Shown here: piece after piece, positions 4,613 to 56,777 of the stretch | How the letters are laid out: the number at the start of each line of letters is the position of its first letter | How positions within the stretch are numbered: the stretch's first letter is position 1 | DNA from: Nanobdellota archaeon | GTDB lineage: Archaea; Nanobdellota; Nanobdellia; Pacearchaeales; GW2011-AR1 | DNA length: 64,000 nt | Assembly (NCBI GenBank): GCA_013329055.1 | Contig: DUKY01000020.1 | Coordinates: 54,989-118,988 of the forward strand | Reading direction: 5' to 3' | The notes under the pieces: generated by a model | Database searches by the model: none | What the model was told of the DNA's origin: nothing | Seen by the model: the letters and a program-made list of their open reading frames with translations, nothing else | Made by a program: the position numbers and the translations under genes

Positions 4613-4766
4613 AAAATGAACCCTTGGTTTCTTTTTGAAAAAGTGTTTTAAAGATTTTAACAAATCCCCTTTTTAATCTTGAATTTTTCCCACATCCCCC
4701 AAATTATTACTAAAGTAATAATTTGCCTTTAAGCAGTTAAAATCTTAATTATTAAAAACAATTTTT
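4613..4766. repeat. A-run/gaacc-ggttc hairpin/T-run followed by a family-A hairpin element
   Basis: The hairpin is aaaatgaacccttggtttcttttt. The arms are gaaaaagtgttttaaagattttaac and gttaaaatcttaattattaaaaacaattttt. The inner hairpin is caaattattac-taaa-gtaataatttg. Confidence 0.8.
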
Positions 4767-4859
4767 GAAACTTGAATGGTTAATCCTATTCCTATTATTA
4801 ATATGTAAAATTAATTTGTTATTTCTTTTATTCCTTTCTTTTAATCTAAATATAAAAAA

Positions 4860-4882: not shown

Positions 4883-5449
4883 ATGAAACATATGGTTCAA
4901 AATAAAAACATAGAATTTGAAATAGTATTAATGTTAATTAATCGGAAGTCTCATTTAAGAGAAATTGCAAGATTAATTAATGAACCTCATTCAACAGTTT
5001 TAAGAAAAATTAATCAACTTGTCAAAGATTCTATTCTTGATTATAAAACTGAAGGAAAAAATAAAAGCTTTTTTATTAAAAGAAATATTAAAGCTAGAAA
5101 TTATGTTCATCTCTCTGAAATCTATAAATTAAATAAGTTATTAGATAAGTCTCCTCAAATGTCAATCATCTTAGAGGATGTTAAGAATAATTTTTCTAAA
5201 GGAATGATAATTTTGTTTGGAAGTTATGCTAAAGGGAATGAAACAAAGAATAGCGATATTGATATTTACTTAGAGACCAATGATAATAAAATTAAAAATA
5301 AAATAAAGGAATTAAATTCAAAATTAAGTATTAAGATTGGGGAATTTGATTTGAATTCATTATTAATCAAAGAAATTATTAAAAATCATGTTATTATTAG
5401 AGGTGTAGAGGATTATTATGAAAAAAATAAAATTTTTGAAACATCTTAA
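4883..5449 (+). CDS. minimal nucleotidyltransferase (MNT-type antitoxin-like) with an N-terminal wHTH
   Basis: GSYAKGNETKNSDIDIYL matches the GS-x9-11-DxD pol-beta-type NTase motif. The N-terminus is wHTH-like (LREIARLINEPHSTVLRKINQLV). The gene overlaps the downstream HEPN gene by 32 nt. Confidence 0.75.
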   Translation: MKHMVQNKNIEFEIVLMLINRKSHLREIARLINEPHSTVLRKINQLVKDSILDYKTEGKNKSFFIKRNIKARNYVHLSEIYKLNKLLDKSPQMSIILEDVKNNFSKGMIILFGSYAKGNETKNSDIDIYLETNDNKIKNKIKELNSKLSIKIGEFDLNSLLIKEIIKNHVIIRGVEDYYEKNKIFETS

Positions 5450-5909
5450 CAAATCAGAAAAATTAAAGATTGTTGAGGTTTCTGAAAGTATGAAAGATTC
5501 TTATTTAGAAAAAGCAAAAAATTGTTTGAAAGCTTCAAAAATTCTTTTGAAAAATGAGCTTTATGAAAATTCTGTCTCCGAGAGTTATTATTGTATTTAT
5601 AATTCATTACTTGCTTTATTATTTAAAATTGGAATTAAATGTGAAAATCATTCTGCATCAATTATTATTTTTGAAAAATTATTTGCAGATAATGAATTGG
5701 TTAAAATCCTTTTATGGGCAAAAGAAGAAAGAATTGATAAACAATATTATGTTGAGACTCAACAGGTAATAAAAGTTACAAAAAAGTCATGTGAAGAGAT
5801 GATTGAAAAAGCAGAAGATATTTTATTAAAATTAAGAGTTATAATTGATGGATTAAATAATGAGAAAGTAAATCAGATCCGAAATTCTTTTGAGAAATTG
5901 TTAAATTAA
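5418..5909 (+). CDS. HEPN-domain protein (partner of the MNT)
   Basis: It is all-helical, with SESYYCIYNSLLALLFKIGIKCENH and EERIDKQYY, as in PF05168-type HEPN. It overlaps the MNT gene. I did not see a canonical Rx4-6H motif. Confidence 0.65.
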   Translation: MKKIKFLKHLNKSEKLKIVEVSESMKDSYLEKAKNCLKASKILLKNELYENSVSESYYCIYNSLLALLFKIGIKCENHSASIIIFEKLFADNELVKILLWAKEERIDKQYYVETQQVIKVTKKSCEEMIEKAEDILLKLRVIIDGLNNEKVNQIRNSFEKLLN

Positions 5910-7609
5910 ACCTTCTTTTCAATCTCTTTTTTTATTTGAGAAATAAAATCTTCTATTTTTAATTGAACTATTTCCTTTTCGTCTCTTTTTTTGATTGCTA
6001 TAACTTTATTTTCCTGCTCTTTTTCTCCTATTGTTACTAAATAATTGAATCTTTGAATCTGTGCTTCTCGTGCTTTTTTTCCTATTGATTCATTTCTGTC
6101 ATCAAGTTCTACCATGAATCCTTGTTCAAATAATTTGTTGTATATCTCTTTTGCATATTCTTTAACTTCGTCATTCATTGTCATAATTTTAATTTGGTTT
6201 GGTGAAAGCCATAATGGGAATTTTCCATTTAAGTGTTCAGTTAGTATTCCTAGGAATCTTTCAATTGCTCCGTAAATTACCCTATGAAGCATTATTGGTC
6301 TTTTGATTTCTCCTTTTTCGTCGGTGTATTCCAGTTCAAATCTTTGTGGTAATGCCATGTCAAGTTGAATTGTTGAGCATTGCCATGTTCTATTTAATGA
6401 ATCTTTTAAATGGAAATCAATTTTTGGTCCATAAAATGCTCCGTCTCCTGCATTAATTTGATATTTTATTTTTTTCTTTTTTAGAATATTTTCTAATGCT
6501 TCTTCTGCTTTGTCCCATAATTTTTCGTCACCGATTCTTTTTTCCGGTCTTGTTGAAAGCTCTATATGGTCAAATTTTAAATTAAATGTATTGAAAATTT
6601 TATTGATTAATTCTATTATTTTTTCAACTTCATTTTCTAATTGTTTTTCTGTACAAAAAATGTGTGCATCATCTTGTGTAAATTGGATTACTCTAAATAA
6701 TCCTGATAGTGTTCCTGAAAGTTCTACTCTATGAACTATTCCTAATTCTCCTACTCGCATAGGTAAGTCTTTGTATGATTTTGGGGAAGTTTTGTAAACT
6801 AGCATTCCTCCTGGGCAATTCATTGGTTTAACTAAAAAGTCTCTATTTTCATAAATTGTTTTAAAATTGTTTTCAGAATATTTTGTCCAGTGTCCTGAAA
6901 TTTCCCAAAGTTTTCTGTCAAGTATTTGTGGTGTTGAAATTTCTGTGTAATCTTTTCTATGAAGTTCTCTCCAGAGTTCTATTAATTTATTTTTTAGATG
7001 CAGTCCTTTATGATGCCAGAAAACCATTCCAGGTGCTGTTTCATTAAAGCTCCAAAGGTCTAGTTTTCTTCCGATTATTCTATGGTCATTATCTTTTAAT
7101 TTTGATGTGTCTAATTTTGATTTTGAAATTTCTTTTAAGAGCCTTTTTCTTTCTTCTTCTGTGATGTCTTCTTCTTCGTGACCTTTAATTACTATTTCTC
7201 TTGAGAGTTCACTTAATGGGTGACCTTTGACTTTTAATTCAAATGTTTTGTAATATCCAAAAGGAGAATGTGATACATTATATTTTTCTTTTTGCAATTT
7301 TTTTTGTGATTCTTCTAAAATCTTTATTGCATTTGTTGGTTTTCCTAAATTATTTGATAAATGTGCATATGGATAAAGGACTATGTTTTTTGCTCCAACT
7401 TGTTCTGCGATTTTTTTTATTTCTTGAGTATATTTTTCAATTGCTTCAGGGATATTTGTGTCATTTTTTTCTATTGCTGTTAATATTACCAGTGCTTCTT
7501 TTACTTCGTGTTCTTTTAATTCTTCTTCGGATAAATCTTCAATTGATTTTAATGCTTTTTTTTGTGCTTGCCATTTAATATAATCAGTATGTAATGATAA
7601 AATCTTCAT
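5906..7609 (-). CDS. thrS: threonyl-tRNA synthetase, archaeal type with N-terminal editing-like domain
   Basis: Motifs present are HRVELSGTLSGLFRVIQFTQDDAHIFC, GDGAFYGPKIDFHL and RPIMLHRVIYGAIERF, and there is a C-terminal anticodon-binding region. Confidence 0.92.
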   Translation of the reverse strand: MKILSLHTDYIKWQAQKKALKSIEDLSEEELKEHEVKEALVILTAIEKNDTNIPEAIEKYTQEIKKIAEQVGAKNIVLYPYAHLSNNLGKPTNAIKILEESQKKLQKEKYNVSHSPFGYYKTFELKVKGHPLSELSREIVIKGHEEEDITEEERKRLLKEISKSKLDTSKLKDNDHRIIGRKLDLWSFNETAPGMVFWHHKGLHLKNKLIELWRELHRKDYTEISTPQILDRKLWEISGHWTKYSENNFKTIYENRDFLVKPMNCPGGMLVYKTSPKSYKDLPMRVGELGIVHRVELSGTLSGLFRVIQFTQDDAHIFCTEKQLENEVEKIIELINKIFNTFNLKFDHIELSTRPEKRIGDEKLWDKAEEALENILKKKKIKYQINAGDGAFYGPKIDFHLKDSLNRTWQCSTIQLDMALPQRFELEYTDEKGEIKRPIMLHRVIYGAIERFLGILTEHLNGKFPLWLSPNQIKIMTMNDEVKEYAKEIYNKLFEQGFMVELDDRNESIGKKAREAQIQRFNYLVTIGEKEQENKVIAIKKRDEKEIVQLKIEDFISQIKKEIEKKV

Positions 7610-7654
7610 ATGGTGCTTAAGCTTAAGAGGTTTTTAAAATTAATTGATAATTTT

Positions 7655-8300
7655 TTTTAAAAAGTGTGTTAAAGATTTTAACTATTCCCCTGAATTTTTT
7701 TGTTGAAAAAGTGTGTCAAAGATTTTAACAAATCCCCTTTTTAATCTTGAATTTTTCCCACATTCTCATAACCTCGCACGAAACTTTGTGGATTATTGTT
7801 TCTACCACGAAGTTATTCGCCCCAAAATCATTATTAATGATTTGCCTTTAAGCTATAGAGAATTATAAAATAATTCTCTAAAAAGTAAACTAAACCAACG
7901 TTAATTCAATTAGTTTACTTTGTTAAAATCTTATTATTAAACACACTTTTTTATTTTTTTACTTGAATTTAATGCCCCCCTTCTTCTCGTAACCTCGCAC
8001 GAAACTTTGTGGATGAAAAAAGCATACAAAGATTTTAACAAATCCCCTTTTTAATCTTGAATTTTTCCCACATCCCCCAAATCATTATTAAAATAATGAT
8101 TTGCCTTTAAGCAGTTAAAATCTTATTGTTGGTATGCTTTTTTTATTGTTTCTACCACGAAGTTATTCGCCCCCATTATTCCTAAAGTAATAATTTACCT
8201 TTAAGTTATATTAAAATCTTATTATTAAACACACTTTTTTATTTCTTTACTTGAATTTAATGCCTCCCCTTCTCGTAACCTCGCACGAAACTTTATTGAT
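7655..8300. repeat. about 650 bp block of nested family-A hairpin elements (at least three elements, one inside another)
   Basis: The outer arms are aaaaagtgtgtt... (7659) and ...aaacacactttttt (8240). An inner element has arms at 7706-7729 and 7921-7952. A third element (8015-8143) interrupts the module that is intact at 7781-7822. Confidence 0.85.
8015..8143. mobile_element. MITE-like hairpin element inserted into the loop of another repeat module
   Basis: The intact sequence is aaactttgtggat|tattgtttctaccacgaagttattcgcccc at 7781-7824. The same flanks occur at 8002-8014 and 8144-8170, separated by a ~129-bp element with complementary ends gaaaaaagcatac...gtatgctttttt. Confidence 0.7.
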
Positions 8301-8364
8301 ATAAAAGTATTTGAAAAATCTCAATTATTAATTACTCTTTTATTATAATTAATCTTATAAATAA

Positions 8365-9144
8365 ATGACTCTTGTATTTTTAATGGTAGAACCTAAAATC
8401 ATTGAATTAAAGGTTAATGGAAAATATTTAACTCTTGTTGGTTCTAATCATGGTAAATTTAGTGGTTCAAAATGCGGGGAATCAGATTTTTTAAAAAGAA
8501 AATATTTTTATGAAGGGTTGATTGATGAATCTGATATTGTTGTTTTAGAACAACCTGTTGGAGGGGAGTTTTATGAAGATATTTCTTTTTTTGCAAAGTT
8601 AGGTTTGATTGCATATGATTCTAATAAAGAAGTTTATGTTATTGATCCAAATAATGTTCCAGCAAATAATCTTCAAAAATTTTTATGTGAACATTTTGAA
8701 AAAGATGGAAAATTACCCTTAGAAATACATGAAGGTTTTACCGGTAAGATTTCATATGAAAGATACAAAAAAGATCATCCTTTTGAAGGGTATATTGATT
8801 ATTTAAATAATATCGGAGAATTTTATTTTAAAATTGCTCATGGTATCAATGATTGGAGAAATGTTGTTATTGCTAAAGGATTAGTTGAAAAAATATCTCA
8901 ACTTTCTGTAGAGAATATTGTTGCTATTCATGGTGCACAGCATACTCGACCTATTGCGTTTTATATTAATAATCCTGAATTAAGACAACAAAAATTTGAG
9001 GGATATAAACGTTTTAATGAAGTTGGTAGGCAAGGGATAAAAAAGTTTACTCCTGTTTTTGATATTAACAATATGGATAAATGTATCTGGAAAAGAGAAT
9101 TAATTTTGCCTGATGCTCATACCATTGTTGTTAAGAGGATTTAA
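8365..9144 (+). CDS. hypothetical protein, possibly TraB/GumN-like
   Basis: The N-terminal LTLVGSNHG and C-terminal VAIHGAQHTRPI resemble the two GxxH motifs of the TraB/PrgY/GumN family. The resemblance is weak and judged by eye only. Confidence 0.35.
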   Translation: MTLVFLMVEPKIIELKVNGKYLTLVGSNHGKFSGSKCGESDFLKRKYFYEGLIDESDIVVLEQPVGGEFYEDISFFAKLGLIAYDSNKEVYVIDPNNVPANNLQKFLCEHFEKDGKLPLEIHEGFTGKISYERYKKDHPFEGYIDYLNNIGEFYFKIAHGINDWRNVVIAKGLVEKISQLSVENIVAIHGAQHTRPIAFYINNPELRQQKFEGYKRFNEVGRQGIKKFTPVFDINNMDKCIWKRELILPDAHTIVVKRI

Positions 9145-12130: not shown

Positions 12131-12363
12131 GGTTCTGTCCAGAATTAAGTTTTTTTGATTTTAGGATTCCCCCTTCAATGAAAGACCCCTCGGTTCTCTT
12201 AGAAAATTGTTTTTAAGATTTAACTATTCCCCTGAATTTTTTTGTTTGAATCTTTATCCCCACATCCCCCTCATTATTGCAAAGCAATAATTCGCCTTTA
12301 AGTTGTTAAATCTTAATTGTTAAAAACAATTTTTTAATTTCCTCAAAGTTTGGAAGGGGTATC
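12131..12363. repeat. composite repeat insertion (left half of family B plus a family-A element at 12201-12335) flanked by an 11-bp direct repeat
   Basis: ttctaagaatt occurs at 12120-12130 and 12364-12374. The B-type left arm is ggttctgtccagaattaagtttttttgattttag. The A-type arms are agaaaattgtttttaagatttaac and gttaaatcttaattgttaaaaacaatttttt. Confidence 0.75.
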
Positions 12364-12372
12364 TTCTAAGAA

Positions 12373-22372: not shown

Positions 22373-22506
22373 GGCTCTTTTCGGAATTAAGTTTTTTTGA
22401 TTTTAGGATTCCCACTTCTAGTTCAAGCTAAAGCTTGAAGACCCGCCCTTAATGAATACCTGAATTGCCAATATGTTAGCTAAAATCAAAAACTCTAAAC
22501 AGAGCC
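22373..22506. repeat. family-B MITE-like element
   Basis: The arms are ggctcttttcggaattaagtttttttgattttag and ctaaaatcaaaaactctaaacagagcc. The central palindrome is ttcaagct-aa-agcttgaa. The element ends 3 nt from the stop codon at 22510. Confidence 0.8.
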
Positions 22507-25985: not shown

Positions 25986-26326
25986 ATGGCATTCAAGGAA
26001 CCAAGGGGTTCACATTCCATGTGGCATTACAGGAGGCTCCGAAAGTTTACACGAGTTTTCATGATAGCCCTTGATACGAGTGTGGACTTGAGTAGAAAGT
26101 TTACACGAGTTCTCATGATAGCCCCTGATACGAGTGGGTTTGAGTTTAGAGATGCCCCCGTTCCGCAAAGTTTGAGGACGAAGTTATTGAACAGCGACAA
26201 ACATTTTAAATGAATAACGACTTTTCAATGACTGAGCCAGCTTAAAAACTTCAAAAGTATCGTCTTTTGAATGTCCCAGAAAATTTAATTCTACAAATTT
26301 TCTGAGGAAACCAGCGGGTGTCTTTT
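25986..26326 (-). repeat. family-C ~340-bp structured repeat, copy 1 (reverse complement of copy 2 at 44669-45010)
   Basis: The reverse complement begins aaaagacacccgctggtttcctcagaaaattt..., directly abutting the stop of the 26325..26510 gene. About 170 nt are near-identical to copy 2, followed by two tandem units built on gtgtaaactttctactcaagtccacac. Confidence 0.85.
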
Positions 26327-26510
26327 ACAAATCTCTTGCTTGAATTGTTCTTCTGTTATTTGCTTTTGCTCGTTTTATGGCATCTCTTAATATTTCTTCT
26401 ACTTTTCTTTCAAGTGCCATTCCTACTTCTTCTGCAACGCTTGATACTGTATTTTCCTTATCCAGTTCTTTGATTGCTTTTTTGATGTTGCTTTTTACAA
26501 TTAAACTCAT
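26325..26510 (-). CDS. histone-fold-like small DNA-binding protein
   Basis: 61 aa. AEEVGMALERKVEEILRDAIKRAKANNRRTIQARDL resembles the alpha2-L2-alpha3 region of archaeal histones and DUF1931. Confidence 0.55.
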   Translation of the reverse strand: MSLIVKSNIKKAIKELDKENTVSSVAEEVGMALERKVEEILRDAIKRAKANNRRTIQARDL

Positions 26511-31685: not shown

Positions 31686-32050
31686 GAAATTGTTTTTAAG
31701 ATTTAACTAAAAAGAACCCTCTGGTTCTTTTTGAATCTCCTCAAAATATTGAAAGGTGGCATCTCTTTGAGCCTTTGTGGATGCCACGTGGAAATCCCTG
31801 AATTTCTTTGTTTGAATCTTAATGCCCCACATTCTCGTAACCTCGCACGAAACTTTGTGGGTTATCGTTTCTACCACGAAGTTACTCGCCCCAAAATTAT
31901 TAAAATAATAATTTGCCTTTAGGTCGTTAAAATCTTATTGTTGGTATGCTTTTTTTTATAGTTTCTATTATGAATTTAATTGCCTTTTGTACAATTATTA
32001 AAGTATAATTTGTATTAAGCAATTAAAATCTATTGTTAGTATGCTTTTTT
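31686..32050. repeat. composite family-A repeat block with an inserted hairpin module and two tandem right arms
   Basis: The left arm is gaaattgtttttaagatttaac. The inserted modules are aaaaagaaccctctggttcttttt and gtggcatc...gatgccac. An intact cgcacgaaactttgtgg...ccacgaagtt module is present, and two ...attgttggtatgctttttt arms follow. Confidence 0.8.
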
Positions 32051-32103
32051 ATTAATAATTTTATCACCAAAAAGATAATAAATACCTATTTTTTGATAAT
32101 TTT

Positions 32104-32973
32104 ATGAAACGTCGGATTGTTTTGATCGGGGTTCCTAGTAATCTTGGTGTTGATATTTCCGGTAGTAATTTTGGTCCTGATAAAATAAGGCAATTTTTAA
32201 TTCCTGAATTAGAAAAAAATAATATTAATTTTGTTGATTTAGGTAATCTTTTTGTTCCTGAAAAAAATTTTTTAGGTGATTCTAATGAAAAGTTAAAAAA
32301 TTTAATTTCTATACAAAGAGTTTATCGGAATTTTTCAAGATTGCCTGAAAATTTTTTTGAAAAACCTAATTTCCCGATAATTCTTGGCGGGGACCATAGT
32401 ATTATTTTTGGGCATATTAAAGAATTAACTAAGAAAAAAAATGCGGGGTTAATTTGGTTAGATGCTCATGGTGATTTTAATGATGAATCTACAACTGTTA
32501 CCGGAAATATTCATGGTATGGTTTTAGGTGCTATTGCCGGAAATTCCTTAAAAAAATATTTTGATGTTGATAAGTCTTTGATTAAAGAAAAAAATATTTC
32601 AATTTTAGGGGCAAGAGATTTAGATTTGAATGAAATTTTTTTATTGAAAAATTCAGATGTTATGGTTATTTCTACTGAAAAATTAAAAGAAAATAAAATG
32701 GAGTATATTTCAAAAGCTATTAATCGTGCTAATGATGAAACGAGTGGTTATCATGTTAGTTTTGATCTTGATCTTGTTGATCCTCTTGATGCTCCGGGTG
32801 TTTCTGTTCCTGTGAATGAAGGTATTTCTAAGGAAGAATTTTCAAATATTGTTGATTTAATTGATACTGATAAATTATTGTCTGTTGATTTTGTTGAGTT
32901 AAATCCTTTAAATGATATTGATGATAAGACTGCTAAGTTGATTGTGGATTCTATTTTGAAGTTGTGTAAGTGA
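32104..32973 (+). CDS. arginase-family ureohydrolase (arginase/agmatinase)
   Basis: The Mn-binding motifs are GGDHSI, WLDAHGDFND, TGNIHGM and SFDLDLVDP. Confidence 0.82.
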   Translation: MKRRIVLIGVPSNLGVDISGSNFGPDKIRQFLIPELEKNNINFVDLGNLFVPEKNFLGDSNEKLKNLISIQRVYRNFSRLPENFFEKPNFPIILGGDHSIIFGHIKELTKKKNAGLIWLDAHGDFNDESTTVTGNIHGMVLGAIAGNSLKKYFDVDKSLIKEKNISILGARDLDLNEIFLLKNSDVMVISTEKLKENKMEYISKAINRANDETSGYHVSFDLDLVDPLDAPGVSVPVNEGISKEEFSNIVDLIDTDKLLSVDFVELNPLNDIDDKTAKLIVDSILKLCK

Positions 32974-33303
32974 ATTTTGTTTCTTTTTGGCTAAAATCTA
33001 CAATTTGATTTCTTATGTAGCGCCCACTACATGGCGAAATAAAATTATAACATTTTATCTCAAAAATAATTCAAAATTTTTTGGGGTTTTGAAATGTCTT
33101 CTTTACTAACTTTTTATATTTTATTTTTGAGGAGAATTTTTTTGGGGGTGGTCGGGGGTTTAAGGCTTCCCAGTAATTGAGTTGAAAATCGGGATTAAGA
33201 GAAGTTGTTTAAGTTCGGAGTGTAGCGTGGCTTGAGTTTAAAAAAGGGTGATTATATCAAGTTCTTTGTTTCTTTTTAGATACATATGTATCTATATTGA
33301 TAC

Positions 33304-33319
33304 GAGGGGAACACTCACG
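33304..33319. repeat. left copy of the inverted repeat bracketing the higher-GC island
   Basis: gaggggaacactcacg here; the reverse complement of 35460-35474 is gggggcacactcacg. Confidence 0.5.
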
Positions 33320-33385
33320 TAAATAAGTGAAGTATGAGCTCTTAACTTTTGTTGAATTCAATAAACATCATGTTGTTAAAAAGCA

Positions 33386-34597
33386 TTACTTCATATGTGC
33401 CAAAATATCGCCAAAGATTAAATTCTGCTGTGCTCTATATTTCCTCACTGCAAGGCCGATGGTCTGCTCGTTCGAGAAGGCTTTATTCATCCTTTTTCCC
33501 TCACTGTTAGTGCCGAATCCGGCATAGTATGCCCATGTTCCGGTGTCCATGAACGCCTGCGGCCAACAGCAGTAATCGGTCCTGTTCATTGGCGATTTGA
33601 TTATCAAGTCCCCGCAAGAAAAGCCTGACATGAACAGTGCGGGTGCACCATTTTCTCTTGCGAACTCAAGGTACTCGTCAATAGTAGACCAGTAAGGCTG
33701 AGTATGTTTTGCTGATAGGAACGCTGGACCGCCAAGCCTTTCAAGCTGTTGTTTACCAATGATGCTCAGGGACATATCTCTTCCGGTGGTATCATCCCCG
33801 TGGATGCTGAAGTGCATAGCGAGGTGCTTCTTTTTCAGCTTATCGGTAACCTTCTGGTATTCGGTGTTATAGACATATTCCTGCGGCATGTCATAACCGA
33901 GACCCTCCTTCGGGTCCGCAAGACCTATGTACTTTCCATTTTCACTTCCCTCGTAGTCAGTTAAGTGAAGGGCAGTTCTGGGATACTTCTTCATGTAACT
34001 TTCAAAGTTGTTGTGGTAGTCTGTGTAGGTCTCCATCGTCTTGAGGATGAAGCTAACCTTTTCAGGATCAGTATAGGCGAATGGTGGCATTATTGATGAG
34101 ATTGCTATGTCACTGCACCTGCAACAGCCACAGTCCTCGTCCACACACTCCATTTTCCAGTATATTGCCGCAAGGCTTTCCCAGTTTGTTGCATTGACCC
34201 CGCTTGCTGTCGGCAGGTCATCTCCTATCAGGATTATATAGGCAACATTGTCATCCATGTATAAATCATCAACGAATTTGTCTAATTCATCTATTGTCTT
34301 CCCTGGAAACTTTTTCAGCCCTGCATTCTCGATGTTTAGGTCCTTCTTTACAGATGTGAAATATTTCGAAACCGATGAAGCGACATCATCAGTATCATAA
34401 ATTCCGCCTTTTGAAACAATAATTGTCACTCTATCCTTTTCCACATTCACAGAACAATAGCAGGGATGCTCTGGAGATACAATGGAAGTAATCCAACATA
34501 CAGTGAAGCTTGCTTGTGAGAAAACCAGCATTATGGTTATAACGATGATTATGGCAACCCAAAATTTTTTTCTTTTGAGCAATTCTGGGATTTTCAT
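33386..34597 (-). CDS. membrane-anchored clan-CD (caspase/gingipain-fold)-like cysteine peptidase
   Basis: It has an N-terminal TM. A candidate His-Cys dyad follows hydrophobic strands: LAMHFSIHGDD and ALFMSGFSCGDL, about 60 residues apart. The fold assignment was made by eye. Confidence 0.45.
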   Translation of the reverse strand: MKIPELLKRKKFWVAIIIVITIMLVFSQASFTVCWITSIVSPEHPCYCSVNVEKDRVTIIVSKGGIYDTDDVASSVSKYFTSVKKDLNIENAGLKKFPGKTIDELDKFVDDLYMDDNVAYIILIGDDLPTASGVNATNWESLAAIYWKMECVDEDCGCCRCSDIAISSIMPPFAYTDPEKVSFILKTMETYTDYHNNFESYMKKYPRTALHLTDYEGSENGKYIGLADPKEGLGYDMPQEYVYNTEYQKVTDKLKKKHLAMHFSIHGDDTTGRDMSLSIIGKQQLERLGGPAFLSAKHTQPYWSTIDEYLEFARENGAPALFMSGFSCGDLIIKSPMNRTDYCCWPQAFMDTGTWAYYAGFGTNSEGKRMNKAFSNEQTIGLAVRKYRAQQNLIFGDILAHMK

Positions 34598-35397
34598 GTT
34601 TTAGTCCCTATTTTCATATCTGCGACAGTATCACGACATGTTTCCTTAATTTTAGGGATTTCAATCATTTCGCAGATAGATTCATCTCCTTTCATTGAGG
34701 CAACTTCTGAATAGCAAGATGCCCGAATTTCTATATCTAGAATTTCTCTGCATATCTGAGGGTCAAGCTTGTTCCATGCAATATATCTATAACAGTGGTC
34801 CTTGTAAGATTCAATGGAAATTTTGTTGCATATTGAAGTGTCGTTTTCTATATTTGCGATCTTGCTATAGCACCAGTCTCTCGGATAGACATTTTCGATT
34901 TCATTACAGATGAACATATGCTTGCGTGAAATGTTAATAGGGAATTTTATCTCGCCTAAGACAATGTCTAAGAAGTATACCTCTATGCTGTGACCAACCA
35001 TACCCTTAGTTTCTGAGTCATATTTTTCATACTGGAATTTTGCCCGTAATTCTGGATTTCGTAACTTTTCATAGACTGTAGGATCCTCGGGAGCTGCTGC
35101 AATCACCGCTTTCATACATTCACTGATGCGGTAATCACTAGGCATTCCGCTTACGCAAAGAACAGGATCATGTCTTGCTACAGCAATTTCTTGCTGACAG
35201 GATGCTCTTTCATAGGGATTTTGAATCTGCATGCATGCAGGATTCACAGTTTCCCAAGCGGACTTGGAACAGGTTATTGATGTGGAACATTGGATACGGT
35301 AAATCAATGTCGGCATATTATAAATAAATATAATAATAACAACCAGAATTATTAAAAAAATAATCCAAAAGATATTTTTTGGATATTTATTTGTCAT
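34594..35397 (-). CDS. membrane-anchored cysteine-rich repeat protein
   Basis: It has an N-terminal TM (IFWIIFLIILVVIIIFIY). C-x(n)-C spacings repeat (DPVLCV...ISECM, DTSICNKI...DHCYRYIA, DPQICREI...ASCYSEVA, DESICEMI...ETCRD). It overlaps the downstream gene by 4 nt. Confidence 0.55.
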   Translation of the reverse strand: MTNKYPKNIFWIIFLIILVVIIIFIYNMPTLIYRIQCSTSITCSKSAWETVNPACMQIQNPYERASCQQEIAVARHDPVLCVSGMPSDYRISECMKAVIAAAPEDPTVYEKLRNPELRAKFQYEKYDSETKGMVGHSIEVYFLDIVLGEIKFPINISRKHMFICNEIENVYPRDWCYSKIANIENDTSICNKISIESYKDHCYRYIAWNKLDPQICREILDIEIRASCYSEVASMKGDESICEMIEIPKIKETCRDTVADMKIGTKT

Positions 35398-35459
35398 TAT
35401 CCAGATTACAGTTTAACAAGTTTATTAATATTACTATCCCTTCTTGAGTGTAGTTCAAT

Positions 35460-35474
35460 CGTGAGTGTGCCCCC
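35460..35474. repeat. right copy of the inverted repeat bracketing the higher-GC island
   Basis: cgtgagtgtgccccc; see the feature at 33304-33319. Confidence 0.5.
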
Positions 35475-35535
35475 ATAGTCATAATTGCGTATAACATCAA
35501 TTAAATAAACAAAATTATCCAGAAATATTTTAATT

Positions 35536-36120
35536 TTAAATCCCTCGATTATCTAATTCATTGTTTACAACTGCTACAACTTGTGAAGCAAAATACATTT
35601 TGGGTCCAATTGAAATGGGTGTTAAAGATTTTTTTAATCTCTTTAATTCTTTTCTTGGGAATCCTTCATGGTCTCCGATAATGAATGCACATTCTTTTTG
35701 TATTTTTGCTTCTCTTAAAGATTCTCCGCCTTTTTCTAAGATAAAACATTCAACATCTTTATCCAATAATTCTTCTATAACGTGTAAGAAACTTTTTTTT
35801 TCTATGAAACATCCGGGCAAAACTTCTGTTTTTTCTCCGGCTTTATATTTGTATAATATTCTTTTTATAAGATTTCCGACATCTTTTTTTGATATTTCAA
35901 GTTCTGGTGTTACTCTAATTTCTATATGTTTTGGTGGGTCTGGCATTCCATAAAATATAAAGTGGAAGTTTACATCCTCTCTAAATCCGTGTGACAAGAA
36001 TACTCCTTGTATAAATGAGTGAATTGCAATATCCATCCTTCCTGCTTTCATTAAATTTCCATCAGAAAGTGCTTTTCCGCTTGTAACTGCACTATTTGAA
36101 AAATATATTATATGACGCAT
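35536..36120 (-). CDS. trmY: tRNA (pseudouridine54-N1)-methyltransferase TrmY (SPOUT, DUF358)
   Basis: MRHIIYFSN...GRMDIAIHSFIQGVFLSHGFREDVNFHFIFYGMPDPPKHIEI matches the TrmY family pattern. Confidence 0.78.
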   Translation of the reverse strand: MRHIIYFSNSAVTSGKALSDGNLMKAGRMDIAIHSFIQGVFLSHGFREDVNFHFIFYGMPDPPKHIEIRVTPELEISKKDVGNLIKRILYKYKAGEKTEVLPGCFIEKKSFLHVIEELLDKDVECFILEKGGESLREAKIQKECAFIIGDHEGFPRKELKRLKKSLTPISIGPKMYFASQVVAVVNNELDNRGI

Positions 36121-36212: not shown

Positions 36213-36768
36213 AAAGAATACAAGATTTTAACAAATCCCCTTTTTTCTTTGTTTGAATTTTATTCCCCACATTCTCATAACCTCGCACGAAACTTTGTGT
36301 AGGTAAAAAAGCGTATGAAAATTTGATTTTTGAGATTCCCACTTCAAGTTCAAGCTAAAGCTTGAAGACCCGCCCTTAAAAATATTTGAATTTCCAATAA
36401 GCTAATCAAAAATTAAATTTTTATTATTAAACACACTTTTTTATTTCTTTGCTTGAATTTTAATCTCCCACATTCCCCAAATTATTACAAAAGTAATAAT
36501 TTGCCTTTAAGCTATAGAAAAAATAATATTTTTTCTAAAAAGTAAACTAAACCAACGTTAATTCAATTAGTTTACTTCGTTAAAATCTTATTGTTGGTAT
36601 GCTTTTTTTATTATTTGCGAAGTTACTCTACTCCTTGTGAAAACTTGCTTTAAATCAAGAAAAAATTTTGATTTATTGGCAATTTTCAAAGTTACTCGCC
36701 CCTTTATTGCTTTGCAATATCTCACCTTTAAGTTTCATTAAAATCTTATTGTTGGTATGCTTTTTTTA
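36213..36768. repeat. about 550 bp mosaic of family-A modules with a nested family-B copy (36321-36414)
   Basis: It contains ...cgcacgaaactttgtg interrupted by other modules, and the B core cccacttcaagttcaagctaaagcttgaagacccgccc. The two-hairpin module tagagaa.../agtaaacta...tagtttact matches 7855-7921. Two ...attgttggtatgcttttttt arms are present. Confidence 0.8.
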
Positions 36769-44668: not shown

Positions 44669-45010
44669 TAAAAGACACCCGCTGGTTTCCTCAGAAAATT
44701 TGAAAAATGAAATTTTCTGGGACTATCAAAAGACGATACTTTTGAAGTTTTTGAGCTGGCTCAGTCATTGAAAAGTCGTTATTCATTTAAAATGTTTGTC
44801 GCTGTTCAATAACTTCGTCCTCAAACTTTGCGGAGCGGTGGCATCTTTACTCAAGCCCACACTTGCGACTTTTAAAATTTGCTTTCAGAATATTATGCAA
44901 GTGTAAACTTTCTACTCAAGTCCACACTTACAGCTTTTATCTTTACCTTCGGGATTAATGTAAGTGTAAACTTTCGACCTCCTTGTAATGCCACATGAAG
45001 TATTGAATGG
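44669..45010 (+). repeat. family-C ~340-bp structured repeat, copy 2
   Basis: It starts immediately after the ccdA stop codon (taataaaagacacccgctgg...). It contains the hairpins cagaaaattt...aaattttctg and tcaaaag-acgata-cttttga, and two units cacacttgc...gcaagtgt and cacacttac...gtaagtgt. The closing stem gtggcat...atgccac is present. Confidence 0.85.
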
Positions 45011-45683: not shown

Positions 45684-46028
45684 ATGGTTATATGTAGATT
45701 GACAAAAGTTTTATTGGAAAATGGAAGACCAATGGATAAAGATTTTTCTGAAATTTTTGAAGTTAGTGACGAAGGTAAATTTTCAGGAAAAATTTTTAAG
45801 TATCAACCTTTTTGCAAAGGTGAAATTAGGGGAAAATTTGATTTAACTAAAGGAATTTTGTCTTTGAATTATCTTTTTAATGGTACAAGCATTGGACAAA
45901 TTTATAGCTTAGAGCGACAATTTTGTTTACCTTGTAATCGTGAGACTATTTTTGGTCATTATTTTGATAAAAAGAGAGAAGTTTTATTCCAAATTGAAGA
46001 TTGTGATAAATGTGACAAGTGTGATTAA
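45684..46028 (+). CDS. hypothetical protein, Cys-rich C-terminus
   Basis: The motifs are DEGKFSGKI and CDKCDKCD. A TATA-like aatatttaaata is centred about 27 nt upstream. Confidence 0.45.
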   Translation: MVICRLTKVLLENGRPMDKDFSEIFEVSDEGKFSGKIFKYQPFCKGEIRGKFDLTKGILSLNYLFNGTSIGQIYSLERQFCLPCNRETIFGHYFDKKREVLFQIEDCDKCDKCD

Positions 46029-46046
46029 GTATTAAAAATTCTATTT

Positions 46047-46322
46047 ACTTGATTTCTAAAAACTCTACTCGTTTCCAGAGCAGTTTATTAATCTTTTACA
46101 TTACTTCTGTTCTAAAAACTCTACTTGTTCCAGAGCAGTTTATGAATTTATTAATTTTTTATATTACTCCTGCTCTAAAAACTCTACTCGTTTTCAGAAC
46201 AGTTTTATTTTATTTTTTAATTTTTTAATTTTTTAAATTACTCCTGCTCTAAAAACTCTACTCGTTTCCAGAGCAGTTTATGAATTTATTAATTTTTTAA
46301 ATTACTCCTGCTCTAAAAACTC
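46047..46322. repeat. tandem array (4 full and 1 partial units of about 55-75 bp), each unit carrying the hairpin ctgctct-N19-agagcag
   Basis: The unit tactcctgctctaaaaactctactcgtttccagagcagttta is repeated. The linkers are short, AT-rich and partly identical to one another. The last partial unit merges with the 3' end of the Dph2 fragment. Confidence 0.85.
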
Positions 46323-46609
46323 GGCATCATCTCTGAATGTCCAAATTGAATTGTTAAATCAATTTGTTTTTGAATTTTTCCTGGTAAAATTGGTGTGTCG
46401 CAAGCTCCAAAACAGCTTTCAATCCAAATTAAAAATTCCGCATCTGTTTTTTCTTCTAAATAGTCAACTATTGCTGTTGCATATTGTTTTAGTCCATCCG
46501 GAAATTGGAGCAAAATTAATTTTGCATTTGATTTTTTTATTTGTTCAATTATTTTGTTTAATTCTAAGTCATATTGTTTTTCTATATCTGATATTGTATA
46601 TTTTTGCAT
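46313..46609 (-). pseudogene. dph2: Dph2 (diphthamide synthesis radical-SAM enzyme), N-terminal ~98 aa only; truncated or split
   Basis: AKLILLQFPDGLKQYATAIVDYLEE...CFGACD...IQFGHSEM matches the first third of archaeal Dph2 (about 340 aa). The ORF stops right after the GHS motif, at the tandem repeat. Confidence 0.65.
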
Positions 46610-46868: not shown

Positions 46869-47387
46869 TTAACCCTTACTTTTTCTGTTTGGTTTGTTTA
46901 TCTCGAACCATTTGCTGATTTCTTGAATTATTTCTGATGTTATTCTTGGGTCTTGAAGTTCGTAAAATTCTTGAGGAGTTATTATTTTATAATATCCTTT
47001 TCCATATGTATTAACTTCTTTAAGATTGCCATATTGAAATTTTTCCCTTGTTGTAATACAAGTGTCTTCTCTACATCTTCCCCAATTATTATTATTTTCT
47101 GTTGGAAAATTGTCTAGTTGCCATTTCCAATTTCCACATTCATAAATTTGCATTAATGTGTCATAACTTTCCTGAGTTGGAGTATTAATTGCTGTTTTTT
47201 CTAATTCTTTTAAAATTAAAATTGGTCTGCCATTTTCGTTTCTTTCTAAAAGAGGTTTTATTTGGTTTGAACCCATATATTGATTTAGGTCTCCAAATAA
47301 ATTCATTCTTTGAATTTTTGTTTCTTCTAATTTTTTCATCATCTTTTCATGTGGAAGAATTATCATTGATTTGTTGAGGGTTATCAT
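46869..47387 (-). CDS. MITLNKSM-family orphan protein, paralogue 1 of 6
   Basis: 172 aa. It shares the N-terminus MITLNKSMIILPHEKMMKKLEE, the core YDTLMQIYECGNWKW, and the C-terminus ITPQEFYELQDPRITSEIIQEISKWFEINKPNRKSKG. Confidence 0.7.
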   Translation of the reverse strand: MITLNKSMIILPHEKMMKKLEETKIQRMNLFGDLNQYMGSNQIKPLLERNENGRPILILKELEKTAINTPTQESYDTLMQIYECGNWKWQLDNFPTENNNNWGRCREDTCITTREKFQYGNLKEVNTYGKGYYKIITPQEFYELQDPRITSEIIQEISKWFEINKPNRKSKG

Positions 47388-47388
47388 T

Positions 47389-47901
47389 TTATCCTTTACT
47401 TTTTCTGTTTGGTTTGTTTATCTCGAACCATTTGCTGATTTCTTGAATTATTTCTGATGTTATTCTTGGGTCTTGAAGTTCATAAAACTCTTGAGGAGTT
47501 ATTATTTTATAATTTCCGTATTCGTTAACTTCTTTAAGATCTCCATATTGAAATTTATTATATGCTTGAACACAAGTTATTTTTCCATAGCATTCCCAAG
47601 CATTAAATTCTGTTGGTAAAATTATGTCTTCAACCCATTTTCTATCACCACATTCGTAAATTTGCATTAATGTGTCATAATTTTCTTGAGTGGGAGTATG
47701 AATTACTGTCCTTTCTAATTCTTTTAATTCTAAAATTGGTCTTCCATTTTCATCTTTTGTAAGATTAGAATTTGTTGAGTCAGATCCCATATATTGATTA
47801 AGGTTTCCAAATAAATTAATTCTTTTAATTCTTGTATCTTCTAATTTTTTCATCATCTTTTCATGTGGAAGAATTATCATTGATTTGTTTAATGTTATCA
47901 T
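47389..47901 (-). CDS. MITLNKSM-family orphan protein, paralogue 2 of 6
   Basis: 170 aa. Its stop lies 1 nt before the start of paralogue 1. An ~85-nt stretch at the 3' end is identical to paralogue 1. Confidence 0.7.
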   Translation of the reverse strand: MITLNKSMIILPHEKMMKKLEDTRIKRINLFGNLNQYMGSDSTNSNLTKDENGRPILELKELERTVIHTPTQENYDTLMQIYECGDRKWVEDIILPTEFNAWECYGKITCVQAYNKFQYGDLKEVNEYGNYKIITPQEFYELQDPRITSEIIQEISKWFEINKPNRKSKG

Positions 47902-49685: not shown

Positions 49686-49818
49686 GGCTCTGTCCAGAAT
49701 TAAGTTTTTTTGATTTTAGAATTCCCACTTCTAGTTCAAGCTAAAGCTTGAAGACCCGCCCTTAATGAATATCTGAATTGCCAAAAGTTAGCTAAAATCA
49801 AAAACTTTGGACAGAGCC
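49686..49818. repeat. family-B MITE-like element overlapping the 3' end of the glycosyltransferase gene
   Basis: The arms are ggctctgtccagaattaagtttttttgattttag and ctaaaatcaaaaactttggacagagcc. The core is cccacttctagttcaagctaaagcttgaagacccgccc. Confidence 0.85.
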
Positions 49819-51251: not shown

Positions 51252-51991
51252 ACCTAAAAGGAAATTCAAAAAAAGAATTTTTTCTTTTGCATGGTTTTAC
51301 AGGAAGTCCTACTGATTTTAATCATCTTGGAGAATATCTTAATAAGCGATTTGATGCAAATGTAAGAATTATAAGATTAAAAGGTCATGGGGAAAAAATA
51401 GAAAATCTTAGTAATTTTGAATATAATGATCTTTTTTTGCAGGCTGAGAATGAATTAAAAAAAGACTTAAAAAAAGGAAGAGAAATAATTGTTGGAGGAA
51501 TTAGTCTAGGTAGTTTTATTGCATTACAGCTTTCAACAAAATATCCTGTTAAAGGGATTATAAATATTTCAATTCCTTATAAATATAAATTCTTAATTTC
51601 AATTGTTGCTTTTTTTGAACCTTTTATTAAAAAAAAGCATTGGAAAAAGGTAATGCCTAAATATCAAAAAGATTTGCGAAAAGATGCTTTTTATTATGAT
51701 GCCAGTCTTTTTGGTTTTAGATATATCAAAGAGGGTAAATCTGAATTAGATAAAATTTTGAATAAGGTTAATGCTCCTTGTTTAATCATTCATGTTGCTA
51801 AAGAAAAAATTTTTCATCCTGATAGTGCAAAAATTATTCTAAATAAAATTAATTCTAAAATTGTTGAGTTTGATTTATTTAAATCTCCTGAGGGTTCAAG
51901 TCATAATCCTTTTTATTCTAAAAATCATAGTCAATTATACGATATTATTGGTAATTTTGTTGAAAAAAATAATTTATTTAGTAAATCTTAA
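51212..51991 (+). CDS. alpha/beta-hydrolase carboxylesterase
   Basis: FFLLHGFTGSPTDF and the nucleophile elbow GGISLGS are present, with a late His in SSHNPF. Confidence 0.72.
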   Translation: MGKSKIDKKAKTINLKGNSKKEFFLLHGFTGSPTDFNHLGEYLNKRFDANVRIIRLKGHGEKIENLSNFEYNDLFLQAENELKKDLKKGREIIVGGISLGSFIALQLSTKYPVKGIINISIPYKYKFLISIVAFFEPFIKKKHWKKVMPKYQKDLRKDAFYYDASLFGFRYIKEGKSELDKILNKVNAPCLIIHVAKEKIFHPDSAKIILNKINSKIVEFDLFKSPEGSSHNPFYSKNHSQLYDIIGNFVEKNNLFSKS

Positions 51992-52503: not shown

Positions 52504-52513
52504 TTTTTATTAA

Positions 52514-52990: not shown

Positions 52991-52991
52991 T

Positions 52992-53495: not shown

Positions 53496-53496
53496 T

Positions 53497-56753: not shown

Positions 56754-56777
56754 AAAAAGGAAACCCTTGGTTCCCTC
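56754..56777 (+). terminator. A-run followed by the ggaaacc/ggttcc hairpin immediately after the infB stop codon (terminator-like; same module that begins the repeat families)
   Basis: The sequence is tga-aaaaaaggaaacccttggttccct. The same module occurs at 383, 4613, 31709 and 44669, and as the reverse complement at 26000 and 26311. Confidence 0.35.

Follow-up and report, generated by a model that had tools for sequence, protein, structure and literature searches.

One-way, duplication-free nesting of intergenic hairpin repeats suggests a possible, hitherto undescribed archaeal analogue of bacterial REP/BIME mobile repeats

The ThrRS spacer at positions 7655-8300 of the window (the whole 64,000-nucleotide stretch of Nanobdellota DNA analysed here) contains hairpin repeats that lie one inside another. 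Did these repeats insert into each other as mobile elements, and if they did, what kind of element moves in this way? DPANN genomes are tiny and gene-dense, yet about 5% of the window (3.3 kb) and most of its longer spacers consist of modules of this repeat family.

The basic unit is about 130 bp in length (simple copies are 129-137 bp), lacks coding capacity and is bounded by arms of about 25-30 nt. The left arm (L) consists of G-A5/6, a 6-nt box and aaagattttaac, and the right arm (R) of gttaaaatctt, a bulge, a complementary box and T5/6. Together they fold the entire unit into a long hairpin, with a C-rich A module and an H hairpin between the arms. Optional modules (X, Y and Z) and an alternative core (F2) occupy fixed internal positions, and the general module grammar is L-A-(X)-H-(Y)-R, with T, W, Z and F2 modules in addition. 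By blastn-short module scans, 14 distinct simple copies and many composites were found in at least three populations and, as far as these scans reach, the family is limited to a few related groundwater and soil Nanoarchaeota. The spacer itself is composed of the following features.

7659-7682, + strand: left arm (L) of the outer element, aaaaag followed by box tgtgtt and aaagattttaac; pairs with the right arm at 8210-8240.
7683-7704, + strand: A1 half (tattcccctga) of the outer A module, then the left copy of an imperfect 11-nt direct repeat (atttttttgtt, 7694-7704).
7705-7952, + strand: complete inner element of 248 bp, with L at 7705-7729, A at 7730-7762, intact X at 7763-7823, H hairpin at 7824-7852, Y double hairpin at 7853-7920 and R at 7922-7952.
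7782-7814, + strand: intact X hairpin with loop attattgtttcta; the insertion point is 3' of the first two loop bases (at^tattg), and a T.G pair is conserved in the stem.
7953-7985, + strand: A2 half (atttttttacttgaatttaatgcccccc) of the outer A module and a linker.
7986-8014, + strand: X-left, the 5' half of a split X, ending in aactttgtggat.
8015-8143, + strand: 129-bp X-loop insert, with L at 8015-8039 (box gcatac), A at 8040-8072, H hairpin at 8078-8111 and R at 8114-8143 (box gtatgc).
8144-8173, + strand: X-right, the 3' half of the split X (tattgtttcta ccacgaagtt attcgcccc), 100% identical to 7793-7823.
8174-8240, + strand: outer element's H hairpin (8175-8205), then its right arm R (8210-8240, box acacac).
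8241-8297, + strand: partial extra copy of A2 and a truncated X-left, duplicating 7953-8014; insertion alone does not explain it.

The intact X 49-mer cgcacgaaactttgtggattattgtttctaccacgaagttattcgcccc is present at 7775-7823 with no mismatch and at 31844-31892 with three mismatches, where chance predicts no match. At 7986-8173 the same module is broken exactly between ggat and tattg: X-left ends at 8014, X-right starts with tattgtttctaccacgaagtt at 8144, and X neither loses nor gains a base around the 129-bp insert, at which no target duplication was found. The insert has ends, gaaaaaagcatac and gtatgctttttt, that are perfectly complementary over 12 nt, and its inner arms (aagattttaac and gttaaaatctt) also pair. 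The break lies inside the 13-nt loop of a hairpin whose stem, aactttgtgg (7782-7791) with ccacgaagtt (7805-7814), comprises nine Watson-Crick pairs and the conserved T.G pair. Folding 7986-8176 as single-stranded DNA gave the predicted nested hairpins at -27.6 kcal/mol (z = -5.25, equalled by none of 200 shuffles). An earlier note, made from the letters of this DNA, had described a module continuous at 7776-7824 and near 31.85 kb and split between ggat and tattg, in the loop of this hairpin, by an element of about 129 bp (8015-8143) with complementary ends. Each of these observations was reproduced, the first coordinates being one off, and the intact and interrupted copies of X, on whose alignment that reading depends, do align with an exact split.

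The same spacer holds a second level of nesting. Arms at 7705-7729 and 7922-7952 enclose the complete 248-bp element, which sits between the mutually complementary outer arms at 7659-7682 and 8210-8240, in agreement with the arms previously placed at 7706-7729 and 7921-7952 inside an outer pair at 7659 and 8240. The right copy of the imperfect 11-nt direct repeat, atttttttact, follows at 7953-7963, and the same layout of A1 half and 11-nt repeat was found in records L050, L029, L049, L027 and L037. A junction reported to recur at 8.23 and 36.43 kb, aaacacacttttttatttctttacttgaattt, was located at 7939, 8227 and 36429, each time with at most one mismatch, against an expectation of zero. The 755-bp spacer is not an assembly artefact, because four records from independent assemblies (L001, L005, L009 and L055) agree on it exactly and its module order is matched on contig L060 of archaeon GW2011_AR13. 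The earlier insertion reading of this spacer holds for the core nesting, but not every junction is a simple insertion. Recombination and duplication have shaped the cluster as well, as is shown by the recurrent junction of an R arm with atttctttacttgaat, by the partial copy at 8241-8297 and by the spacer's long allele, a tandem duplication of 310 bp between repeated segments.

Further copies in the window have the same modular build.

502-634, + strand: simple 133-bp member, La-At-H-Ra, with boxes ttgttt and aaacaa.
4620-4780, + strand: 161-nt unit of T hairpin, 131-bp L-A-H-R element and the 11-nt motif gaaacttgaat; also in L056, lacking at the orthologous site of L052.
12131-12370, + strand: F2 left-arm fragment, then T hairpin, La-At-H-Ra element and W module; in the L052 population T and W are separated by a different module, of 58 nt.
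22373-22506, + strand: complete element of family 2 (F2), bounded by inverted ends of its own (ggctct...agagcc).
31687-32051, + strand: composite of La, an 86-nt T-W insert at the L-A1 junction, At, intact X (31834-31892), H and Rc, then degenerate X-right, H and Rc.
36213-36766, + strand: composite of X-left (36274-36305), F2-core element, A2, H, Y, Rc, degenerate X-right with Z module, and Rc.
49686-49818, + strand: complete F2 element.
57723-57813, + strand: F2 element without its central core.

Comparison of orthologous spacers between populations that are 90-95% identical shows that such copies come and go. The ThrRS spacer is 381, 755, 1007 or 1065 bp long depending on the population. 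L041 differs from L037 by the pure insertion of a 184-bp composite; the flanks, which lack shared homology, are contiguous in L037, and there is no duplication. The 161-nt unit that fills 4620-4780 is absent from an otherwise conserved site in L052. A 640-bp nested cluster is present in L037 and missing from L041, and at one and the same locus X is intact in L045 and split in L044. For the inner element at 7705-7952, a 330-bp composite that is 91% identical was found in a different genome (L023/L041), where its neighbouring genes are unrelated and its position is not the orthologous one. Composites move as units. Most comparisons of empty and filled sites are not clean, and contigs break or turn chimeric at the repeats, the breaks at module spacers in assemblies of these organisms being due to rapid repeat turnover. 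The variant alleles in L006 and L013 are probably assembly chimeras rather than recombinants and were treated as such, since their divergent parts match the sequence of another population and both lie at contig ends. Because orthologous spacers differ between such close populations, the repeats are or were mobile; that they have been so recently or still are, and that they nest, we regard as very probable. The earlier note's picture of mobile Russian-doll repeats, one landing in the hairpin loop of another, is hence backed by data from beyond the window, and copies are not fixed at orthologous positions; fixation there would have been at odds with it.

It is extremely improbable that no transposition was involved and that old structural or regulatory sequences (terminators, protein-binding sites or RNA genes) were made into mosaics solely by homologous recombination, gene conversion and tandem duplication. 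The 310-bp duplication, hybrid elements with non-matching arms, recurring identical composite junctions and the contig breaks and chimeras at repeats would all fit this explanation, and remodelling of clusters by recombination between copies (tandem duplication and hybrid arms) has indeed been shown. However, recombination alone cannot split X at one nucleotide, without loss or gain, around different inserts, and it is contradicted by the 184-bp unit between contiguous unique flanks that lack homology and by the 161-nt unit at an otherwise conserved site.

The insertion point in X is used repeatedly. In related groundwater and soil Nanoarchaeota, X is broken at the identical nucleotide by at least three kinds of element, in constant orientation and with no target duplication, and elements with different cores use this nucleotide in at least three populations. 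Five clean X-loop junction pairs beyond the window bring the total to six, all at the same nucleotide and with inserts of differing content: an F2-core element in L022/L031, an A-H core in L036 (974) and L037/L051, and a different L subtype in L036 (2852) and L044 (6785). Neither these six pairs nor the 184-bp insertion into unique DNA showed a target duplication. Of 27 non-redundant L ends, about 11 immediately follow X-left, and 10 R ends immediately precede X-right. The defined integration points are the X hairpin loop (ggat^tattg), A1^A2 of the A module and the position just 3' of the T-run of the T hairpin. Entry of units at these points gives rise to the Russian-doll clusters. L ends are preceded by ggat, a T-run or tttgtt; these left flanks have no motif in common, nor does any conserved target of 4-5 nt precede all L ends. 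Direct repeats that could be target duplications are the imperfect 11-nt repeat, which lies on both sides of A1^A2 insertions only, and a perfect 16-nt repeat that borders the L056 cluster. Because box type tracks the target site (gcatac/gcgtat in X loops and gtgtgt at A1^A2), many of the insertions may be duplicates of a small number of ancestral composites and not separate events.

Within a contig, the main families also keep to a single direction. Every cluster (10 of 10) and every module (55 of 55) in the window is on the + strand, a polarity that continues for 10 kb leftward and about 7.5 kb rightward, and co-orientation is complete on other contigs (9/9, 7/7, 6/6 and 3/3). On any one contig, the L-R, X and F2 families have one orientation in common. 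No relation of element orientation to local gene direction was found, and proxies for the direction of replication conflict: the sense strand of the 23S rRNA is the top strand of the elements, but 69% of the window's coding sequence is on the other strand. Taken with the junctions described above, insertion in one polarity and without duplication is highly probable.

These properties are relevant to whether the elements are ordinary MITEs, that is, internally deleted derivatives of a DDE-transposase IS that are cut and pasted by way of their terminal inverted repeats of about 25-30 bp, with a preference for AT-rich loops. The typical size of about 130 bp and the clear inverted ends are as expected of MITEs, as are the 11-nt and 16-nt direct repeats. 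Correia elements of Neisseria, Nezha/Chunjie-type MITEs and SM1-SM4 of Sulfolobus, all classical MITEs of prokaryotes known to nest, are likewise small, non-coding, multi-copy and intergenic elements with inverted ends that are sometimes nested. They duplicate their target and insert both ways, however, and neither is seen here at clean sites. A DDE element with symmetric ends should enter in both directions, yet copies are co-oriented on each contig; covariation of the end boxes (see below) is not required of DDE binding sites; and neither a DDE gene nor a longer copy with the same ends was found in the sequence examined. A MITE origin is thus unlikely, although a Woesearchaea genome is reported to be rich in MITEs (PMC11602168). 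The same 2024 census, which ranks that genome among the most MITE-dense of archaea but gives no element anatomy, makes the earlier statement that no equivalent has been described in DPANN archaea only partly true.

Exact, oriented and duplication-free entry into a conserved hairpin would equally be expected of cassettes moved by a duplication-free site-specific recombinase. Such an enzyme could be a bridge-RNA-guided DEDD enzyme of the IS110/IS1111 type, a serine recombinase like that of IS607, or a tyrosine recombinase that works on folded hairpins as in integrons. REP hairpins are known targets of IS110-family elements (PMC1525189, PMC12288879), and the covarying arms recall the conservation of structure rather than sequence in attC sites. 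Against this, element ends and target have no common core sequence, copies are dispersed over more than 10 loci in 64 kb instead of forming a one-locus array beside an integrase, no such recombinase gene was seen in the sequence examined, and the model does not predict the chromosome-wide polarity of clusters in unique DNA. We consider this origin fairly unlikely.

The boxes at the two element ends covary. Complementary pairs of 6-nt L and R boxes occur in at least four variants, with 20 mismatches observed versus 44 ± 6.5 after shuffling (2 of 10,000 shuffles were as low), and the H stem also shows compensatory changes among copies. In a MAFFT/RNAalifold consensus of the 14 simple elements, indels misaligned the outer arms, so that just the inner helix and the H hairpin were retrieved; arm complementarity was therefore measured directly. 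One-way polarity, the covariation of the end boxes and the part of recombination in shaping the cluster (310-bp duplication allele and hybrid elements) are new here.

Some of these structural features would suit small structured RNAs ending in T-runs that were spread or kept through RNA, by retro-insertion or by selection as functional RNAs with optional domains. T.G pairs fit pairing (as G.U) on the + strand only, the CCCC boxes (three per unit) are invariant and located in unpaired regions, all copies have a single orientation, and every L-R unit is terminated by an oligo-T tract, which is an archaeal termination signal. Nevertheless, an Rfam search gave no meaningful match at the gathering score for the whole window or at E ≤ 10 for 7600-8400 (the best was RsaE with 20.8 bits versus a threshold of 79). 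No reverse transcriptase was seen; the sole RVT_3 match comes from an ORF batch that also gave an RNase H match, and it probably represents a protein of the RNase H type. The element ends are moreover symmetric as DNA, and the minus strand folds nearly as well (z = -4.12), making an RNA-level origin very unlikely. A tRNA scan of the window found none. A virus-borne origin is not supported either, because viral contigs contain no copy of X-left or of the L-A junction.

Several more specific readings of the inserts were tried and rejected. The X-loop insert is not a BHB intron, as on inspection its junction has single-stranded segments of 3 nt and 11 nt and not a 3-4-3 bulge-helix-bulge. A guide sequence as in IS608, in which the box would pair with or equal the target flank, was rejected for lack of consistent complementarity or identity in the X-loop and A1^A2 classes. 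In the case of integron attC sites, gatttaac and gttaaatc match RYYYAAC and GTTRRRY in just a single variant, and the boundaries of the inserts do not fall within the motifs.

What, then, moves the modules? No transposase domain and no Y1_Tnp match was found among the approximately 68 ORFs scanned directly (58 in the window and 10 from related loci), and Pfam annotations of genes 7-10 kb to each side of the window include no transposase; the sequence examined makes up a fraction of each genome. The earlier claim that the window has no transposase apart from a dead IS4/IS5 fragment is thus upheld as to the 58 window ORFs, but the fragment was not located. Head-to-tail R-L joints, as in circle junctions or tandem units, were absent from the sequence examined. 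We propose that folded single-stranded DNA of one strand would serve as the substrate of an enzyme encoded elsewhere, which would move the modules in trans. A HUH tyrosine transposase resembling those of IS200/IS605 or RAYT and active at replication forks may be responsible, and the spread of the modules would then resemble that proposed for REP/BIME/REPIN and PATE elements. A single-strand enzyme of the HUH type is a tentative assignment. The account as a whole, of mobile hairpin modules moved by a trans-acting single-stranded DNA enzyme, is the best explanation, and with its mechanism included it could equally well prove right or wrong.

Single-strand transposition of IS200/IS605 at the lagging-strand template involves orientation bias, hairpin dependence and no duplication (PMC6006769, PMC3333891). 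IS200/IS605 elements and the PATEs of archaea and cyanobacteria share with the elements described here the lack of target duplication, hairpin dependence, structure specific to the top strand, orientation bias and precise insertion beside a defined sequence. However, IS200/IS605 elements have different subterminal hairpins and no terminal inverted repeat, unlike the long terminal inverted repeats of the present units, whose ends are complementary over two helices, a point against an IS200/IS605-like step. They also recognize a fixed tetra- or pentanucleotide target, of which none is evident here, and a related autonomous copy was not found for these elements.

The analogy with REP/BIME and RAYT, which the earlier note had drawn, fits in behaviour. 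As in REP/BIME/REPIN, intergenic high-copy hairpin units and a few conserved linker motifs form mosaics of fixed grammar, and as in REPINs, each unit forms a long hairpin through its paired inverted arms. The 310-bp duplication allele is comparable to the model of BIME amplification (PMC3333891), in which units are amplified in tandem, and REP hairpins (PMC1525189), like those described here, are insertion targets for other mobile DNA. REP-homing ISs (IS1397/ISKpn1 of the IS3 family and IS621/ISPpu9 of the IS110 family) resemble the present elements in that they specifically enter an intergenic repeat hairpin, at its loop or stem and in a fixed orientation to it, but they are autonomous and gene-carrying, whereas here insert and target are both non-coding members of one repeat system. 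REP sequences are bacterial GC-rich palindromes of 20-40 bp with a GTAG/CGTC tag at the foot. The units in this archaeal host are of about 130 bp and AT-rich, start with G-A5/6 and a variable box, and have neither tag at the feet of arms or hairpins. Strict co-orientation of all copies is a feature of the present elements, unlike REP/BIME/REPIN. RAYT is the cognate enzyme of REP, its single-copy gene having the repeats on either side (REPtron), whereas no cognate of these modules was found in the ORFs scanned, and in archaea only IS200-type Y1 enzymes have been found, RAYTs or RAYT subclasses not being reported (PMC6006769). A bolder reading, which we consider possible though somewhat doubtful, is of an archaeal REP/BIME-RAYT analogue or of a replication-coupled system of single-strand integration not described before. 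On this reading, hairpin modules of at least eight kinds would home into each other's fixed positions (the hairpin loop, or the hairpin foot after the T-run) with chromosome-wide polarity and without target duplication, and covarying boxes would define sub-families with their own targets.

The fast turnover of the clusters, which differ between populations that are 90-95% identical, makes them useful strain markers, and their strict polarity could be a marker of the direction of replication in unculturable genomes. If a single-strand-specific enzyme does move these modules, the X hairpin and the L and R arms would provide a defined substrate with which to hunt for it, and the REP/BIME/REPIN type of long-lived, host-bound mobile repeat would extend to the Archaea.

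The repeat cluster at 7655-8300 occupies a 755-bp spacer between two divergent genes.

ThrRS gene: start 7609, minus strand; threonyl-tRNA synthetase, with the 259-aa ORF as its right-hand neighbour across the spacer
259-aa ORF: start 8365, plus strand; across the 755-bp spacer from ThrRS

The window DNA is archaeal (∼28% G+C) and its ThrRS contains the archaea-specific editing domain. An identical ThrRS protein, labelled 'Nanoarchaeota archaeon' by NCBI, was found on groundwater (Rifle aquifer) contigs, and archaeon GW2011_AR13 has, on one contig, a truncated copy that is at least 90% identical. Since the spacer has the same sequence in four independently assembled records, and its module order is repeated in a GW2011_AR13 contig (L060), an assembly artefact is ruled out. 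Beside ThrRS, a HEPN/nucleotidyltransferase (MNT-type toxin-antitoxin) pair (window 4883-5909) is replaced in the L052 population by DUF5678 and aspartic-protease-like genes (L052 7735-8366), and an AbiEii pair is inserted close to the 259-aa gene in loci L056/L057, which suggests that the surroundings of ThrRS are a small variable island.

Direct checking bore out all the sequence statements of an earlier note, which had described the cluster as nested hairpin repeats and claimed that they are or were mobile. The 49-nt hairpin module X is whole at 7775-7823, and a second whole copy (31844-31892) has three mismatches. At 7986-8173 X is interrupted by a 129-bp insert, with ggat ending at 8014, tattg beginning at 8144 and zero X bases lost or gained. 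The ends of the insert, gaaaaaagcatac and gtatgctttttt, are complementary, and a second helix (aagattttaac/gttaaaatctt) lies immediately inside them. The split follows the second base of the 13-nt loop formed by hairpin aactttgtgg/ccacgaagtt, and when folded as single-stranded DNA the region adopts the nested hairpins that had been expected (−27.6 kcal/mol, z=−5.25). Outer arms that match each other, at 7659-7682 (left) and 8210-8240 (right), enclose a complete element of 248 bp (7705-7952), and a 32-nt recurrent junction occurs three times versus zero expected by chance.

Comparison of all copies of the family, whose clusters total 3.3 kb (5.2% of the window), yielded a module grammar with the order L, A, optional X, H, optional Y and R.

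L (left) arm: G, A5-6, a 6-nt box, then aaagattttaac
A: C-rich, with halves A1 and A2
H: a hairpin, then gcctttaag
Y: optional, two hairpins
R (right) arm: gttaaaatctt, a 6-7-nt bulge, the complementary box, then T5-6
Z: located within X-right, the 3' half of X
F2: an alternative core, also found as complete elements with their own inverted ends
T hairpin: GC-rich, with a T-run
W and V: further modules of the family

H stems show compensatory changes from copy to copy, and the L and R boxes form at least four complementary pairs (ttgttt/aaacaa, gcatac/gtatgc, gtgtgt/acacac and gcgtat/atacgc). Box mismatches number 20, compared with 44±6.5 in controls that reassign right arms at random to left arms (2 of 10,000 shuffles as low), a statistic inflated by the kinship of sub-families. 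There are a few hybrids whose arms do not match (L039, L044). Either selection for pairing or a copying mechanism is required to produce four matched box variants. The C-runs CCCC, CCC and CCCC (in one copy, window 8043-8046, 8066-8068 and 8073-8077) are invariant in unpaired parts of all 14 simple elements aligned, despite the 28% G+C genome, and may be a protein recognition site or form an i-motif, or a G-quadruplex on the opposite strand.

The loop of X is a genuine, recurrent insertion site, as seen at the following loci.

L022/L031: X split at the same point by an F2-core element
L036 974 and L037/L051: X split at the same point by A-H-core elements with differing right arms
L036 2852 and L044 6785: X interrupted at the identical position by another L subtype, with gcgtat as box and gaaaattttaac as inner arm
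Window 36278, L027 1771 and L023: X split, messier

In every case the L arm adjoins X-left, the 5' half of X, so that the orientation of the insert is fixed, and in none is there a duplication. L ends lie directly after X-left in ∼11 of 27 non-redundant instances, and R ends directly before X-right in 10. Textbook nested dolls are present in L037/L051 and at L036 2675-3083, where an outer La...Ra pair with matched boxes encloses X and the X loop holds an inner L...R pair, also with matched boxes. A second preferred insertion point is the A1/A2 boundary (gtgtgt boxes in all six cases), where an 11-nt direct repeat, imperfect and of the form atttYtttRYt, borders the inserts; the T hairpin provides a third, immediately past its T-run (window 4636 and 12203), and T-W units are positioned at the L/A1 junction (window 31708, L044 and L036). 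Box type correlates with target site, and loci unrelated to one another share the same composites (window 7703-8035 and L023, for instance, have in common a 330-bp block with 91% identity); hence some apparent insertions are copies of older composites moving as units.

In keeping with the claimed mobility, copies do not all sit at fixed orthologous positions, and repeat content differs between populations whose flanking genes share 90-95% identity. X is intact in L045 and split in L044 at the same locus, and a 640-bp nested cluster of L037 stands against ∼45 bp of unrelated spacer in L041. Four forms of the ThrRS spacer are known.

755 bp: window
1065/1067 bp: window sequence with unit 7764-8073 in tandem duplicate
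381 bp: L056/L057, another module set with a 16-nt direct repeat around the cluster
1007 bp: L052-54, a single simple element that begins at the shared left boundary, together with unrelated DNA

The 1065/1067-bp form is the product of unequal recombination between two repeated 47-nt stretches. Recombination alone, without transposition, is contradicted by a 184-bp composite in L041 that lies exactly between sequences contiguous in L037, with neither duplication nor deletion, and by the 161-nt unit at 4620-4780 (T hairpin, L...R and gaaacttgaat), in place of which the orthologous L052 site has only ttcg. Insertion-type and recombination-type events thus both occur. Within repeats, metagenome contigs either end or carry on in the sequence of another population (contig ends of L006 and L013), and some chimeric joins in assemblies of these archaea stem from the repeats.

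The L-R, X, H and F2 modules of the window all lie on the plus strand (55 module hits in 10 clusters), as do its asymmetric motifs (8/8 and 3/3). Clusters on other contigs likewise have a single orientation (9/9, 7/7, 6/6 and 3/3), and the window's polarity, a new observation, persists beyond both its edges (10 kb on the left, ∼7.5 kb on the right) with no correspondence to local gene direction. Together with the missing target duplications, the polarity of the copies contradicts their being DDE MITEs. F2 elements (L059 16595-16716 and 20495-20590), ∼6-10 kb left of the window, flank a 23S rRNA gene (L059 16966-19785) on the same strand as the rRNA. The lone exception to the polarity, in L029, lies in a short segment that is bordered by direct repeats of a tRNA-Lys gene 3' end and is probably a remnant of an integrated element. 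At L029 1668-2262, the 3' end of the tRNA-Lys(ttt) gene recurs twice after the gene as a direct repeat (gaatcccgtcgaggtcata at 1905; gccgtcgaggtcata at 2247); one of the repeat-bounded segments carries the only inverted X copy seen, and the segments were probably left behind by elements that had integrated at the tRNA. Unlike the other families, T-hairpin composites are placed after the stop codon of the upstream gene, with one copy (26018-26327) inverted.

381-409, 44669-44700 and 56754-56785; inverted, 26300-26327: GC-rich hairpin and T-run (aaaGGAACCccttGGTTCCttt), directly 3' of stop codons and oriented with the upstream gene

This hairpin resembles a bacterial-type intrinsic terminator and belongs to a longer composite, 44669-44997 having 85% identity to the reverse complement of 26018-26327.

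Elsewhere in the window, G+C content reaches 34-36% at 32000-36000 (∼28% elsewhere); the adjacent ORFs 33386-34597 and 34594-35397 in this region have no Pfam match, and 108 nt (32973-33080) immediately 3' of the arginase gene are 86% identical to a stretch of L028. Two tandem paralogous arrays (46869-47901 and 51988-54009) encode ∼170-aa proteins with a period of ∼505-520 bp and copies 60-96% identical at the nucleotide level; Pfam gave no match for the single member scanned (46869-47387). Tandem ∼64-74-bp units at 46020-46371 each contain a hairpin (ctgctct...agagcag) and have similar AT-rich linkers; their resemblance to a CRISPR array is superficial, as the 'spacers' are not unique.

An exact 19-mer of X-left was found in only one archaeal GTDB species representative, 'Candidatus Nanoarchaeia archaeon SMAG_U8054' (seven matches; 185,579 species), and in 23 stretches of JGI groundwater contigs. 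Two isolated single matches in Pedobacter genomes approximate chance expectation, and viral contigs contain none. The genes flanking the SMAG loci have no orthologue within the window, so these copies occupy gene contexts not represented there.

MITE-like repeats in archaea, MITE nesting and insertion into repeat hairpins are each already known. A MITE census counted a Woesearchaea genome as MITE-dense (PMC11602168). Our literature search found no description in a DPANN archaeon of the full combination, and it is this that appears new: a multi-module grammar, mutual homing to fixed points, absence of duplication, strict polarity and covarying arm boxes.

Four properties stand out: integration is duplication-free, it depends on hairpins, structural features (the conserved T.G pairs) are specific to a single strand, and orientation is biased at chromosome scale. 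The same four together characterize Y1 HUH single-strand transposition of IS200/IS605 on the lagging-strand template (PMC6006769, PMC3333891), a mode that applies by extension to REP/BIME-RAYT systems. Membership in either group is weakened by the long inverted repeats at the ends, by the absence of a GTAG-type tag or fixed target tetranucleotide, and because no mobilising enzyme was found in 68 ORFs scanned directly or in Pfam annotations of flanking loci. Known archaeal Y1 enzymes are of IS200 type only (PMC6006769). A site-specific recombinase of IS110, IS607 or integron type is a rival explanation, as is an RNA-level role for the modules. On the analogy of the four properties with Y1 HUH transposition, and of the modular mosaic and tandem amplification of a unit with BIMEs, we favour a trans-acting enzyme specific for single-stranded DNA, which would move the modules.
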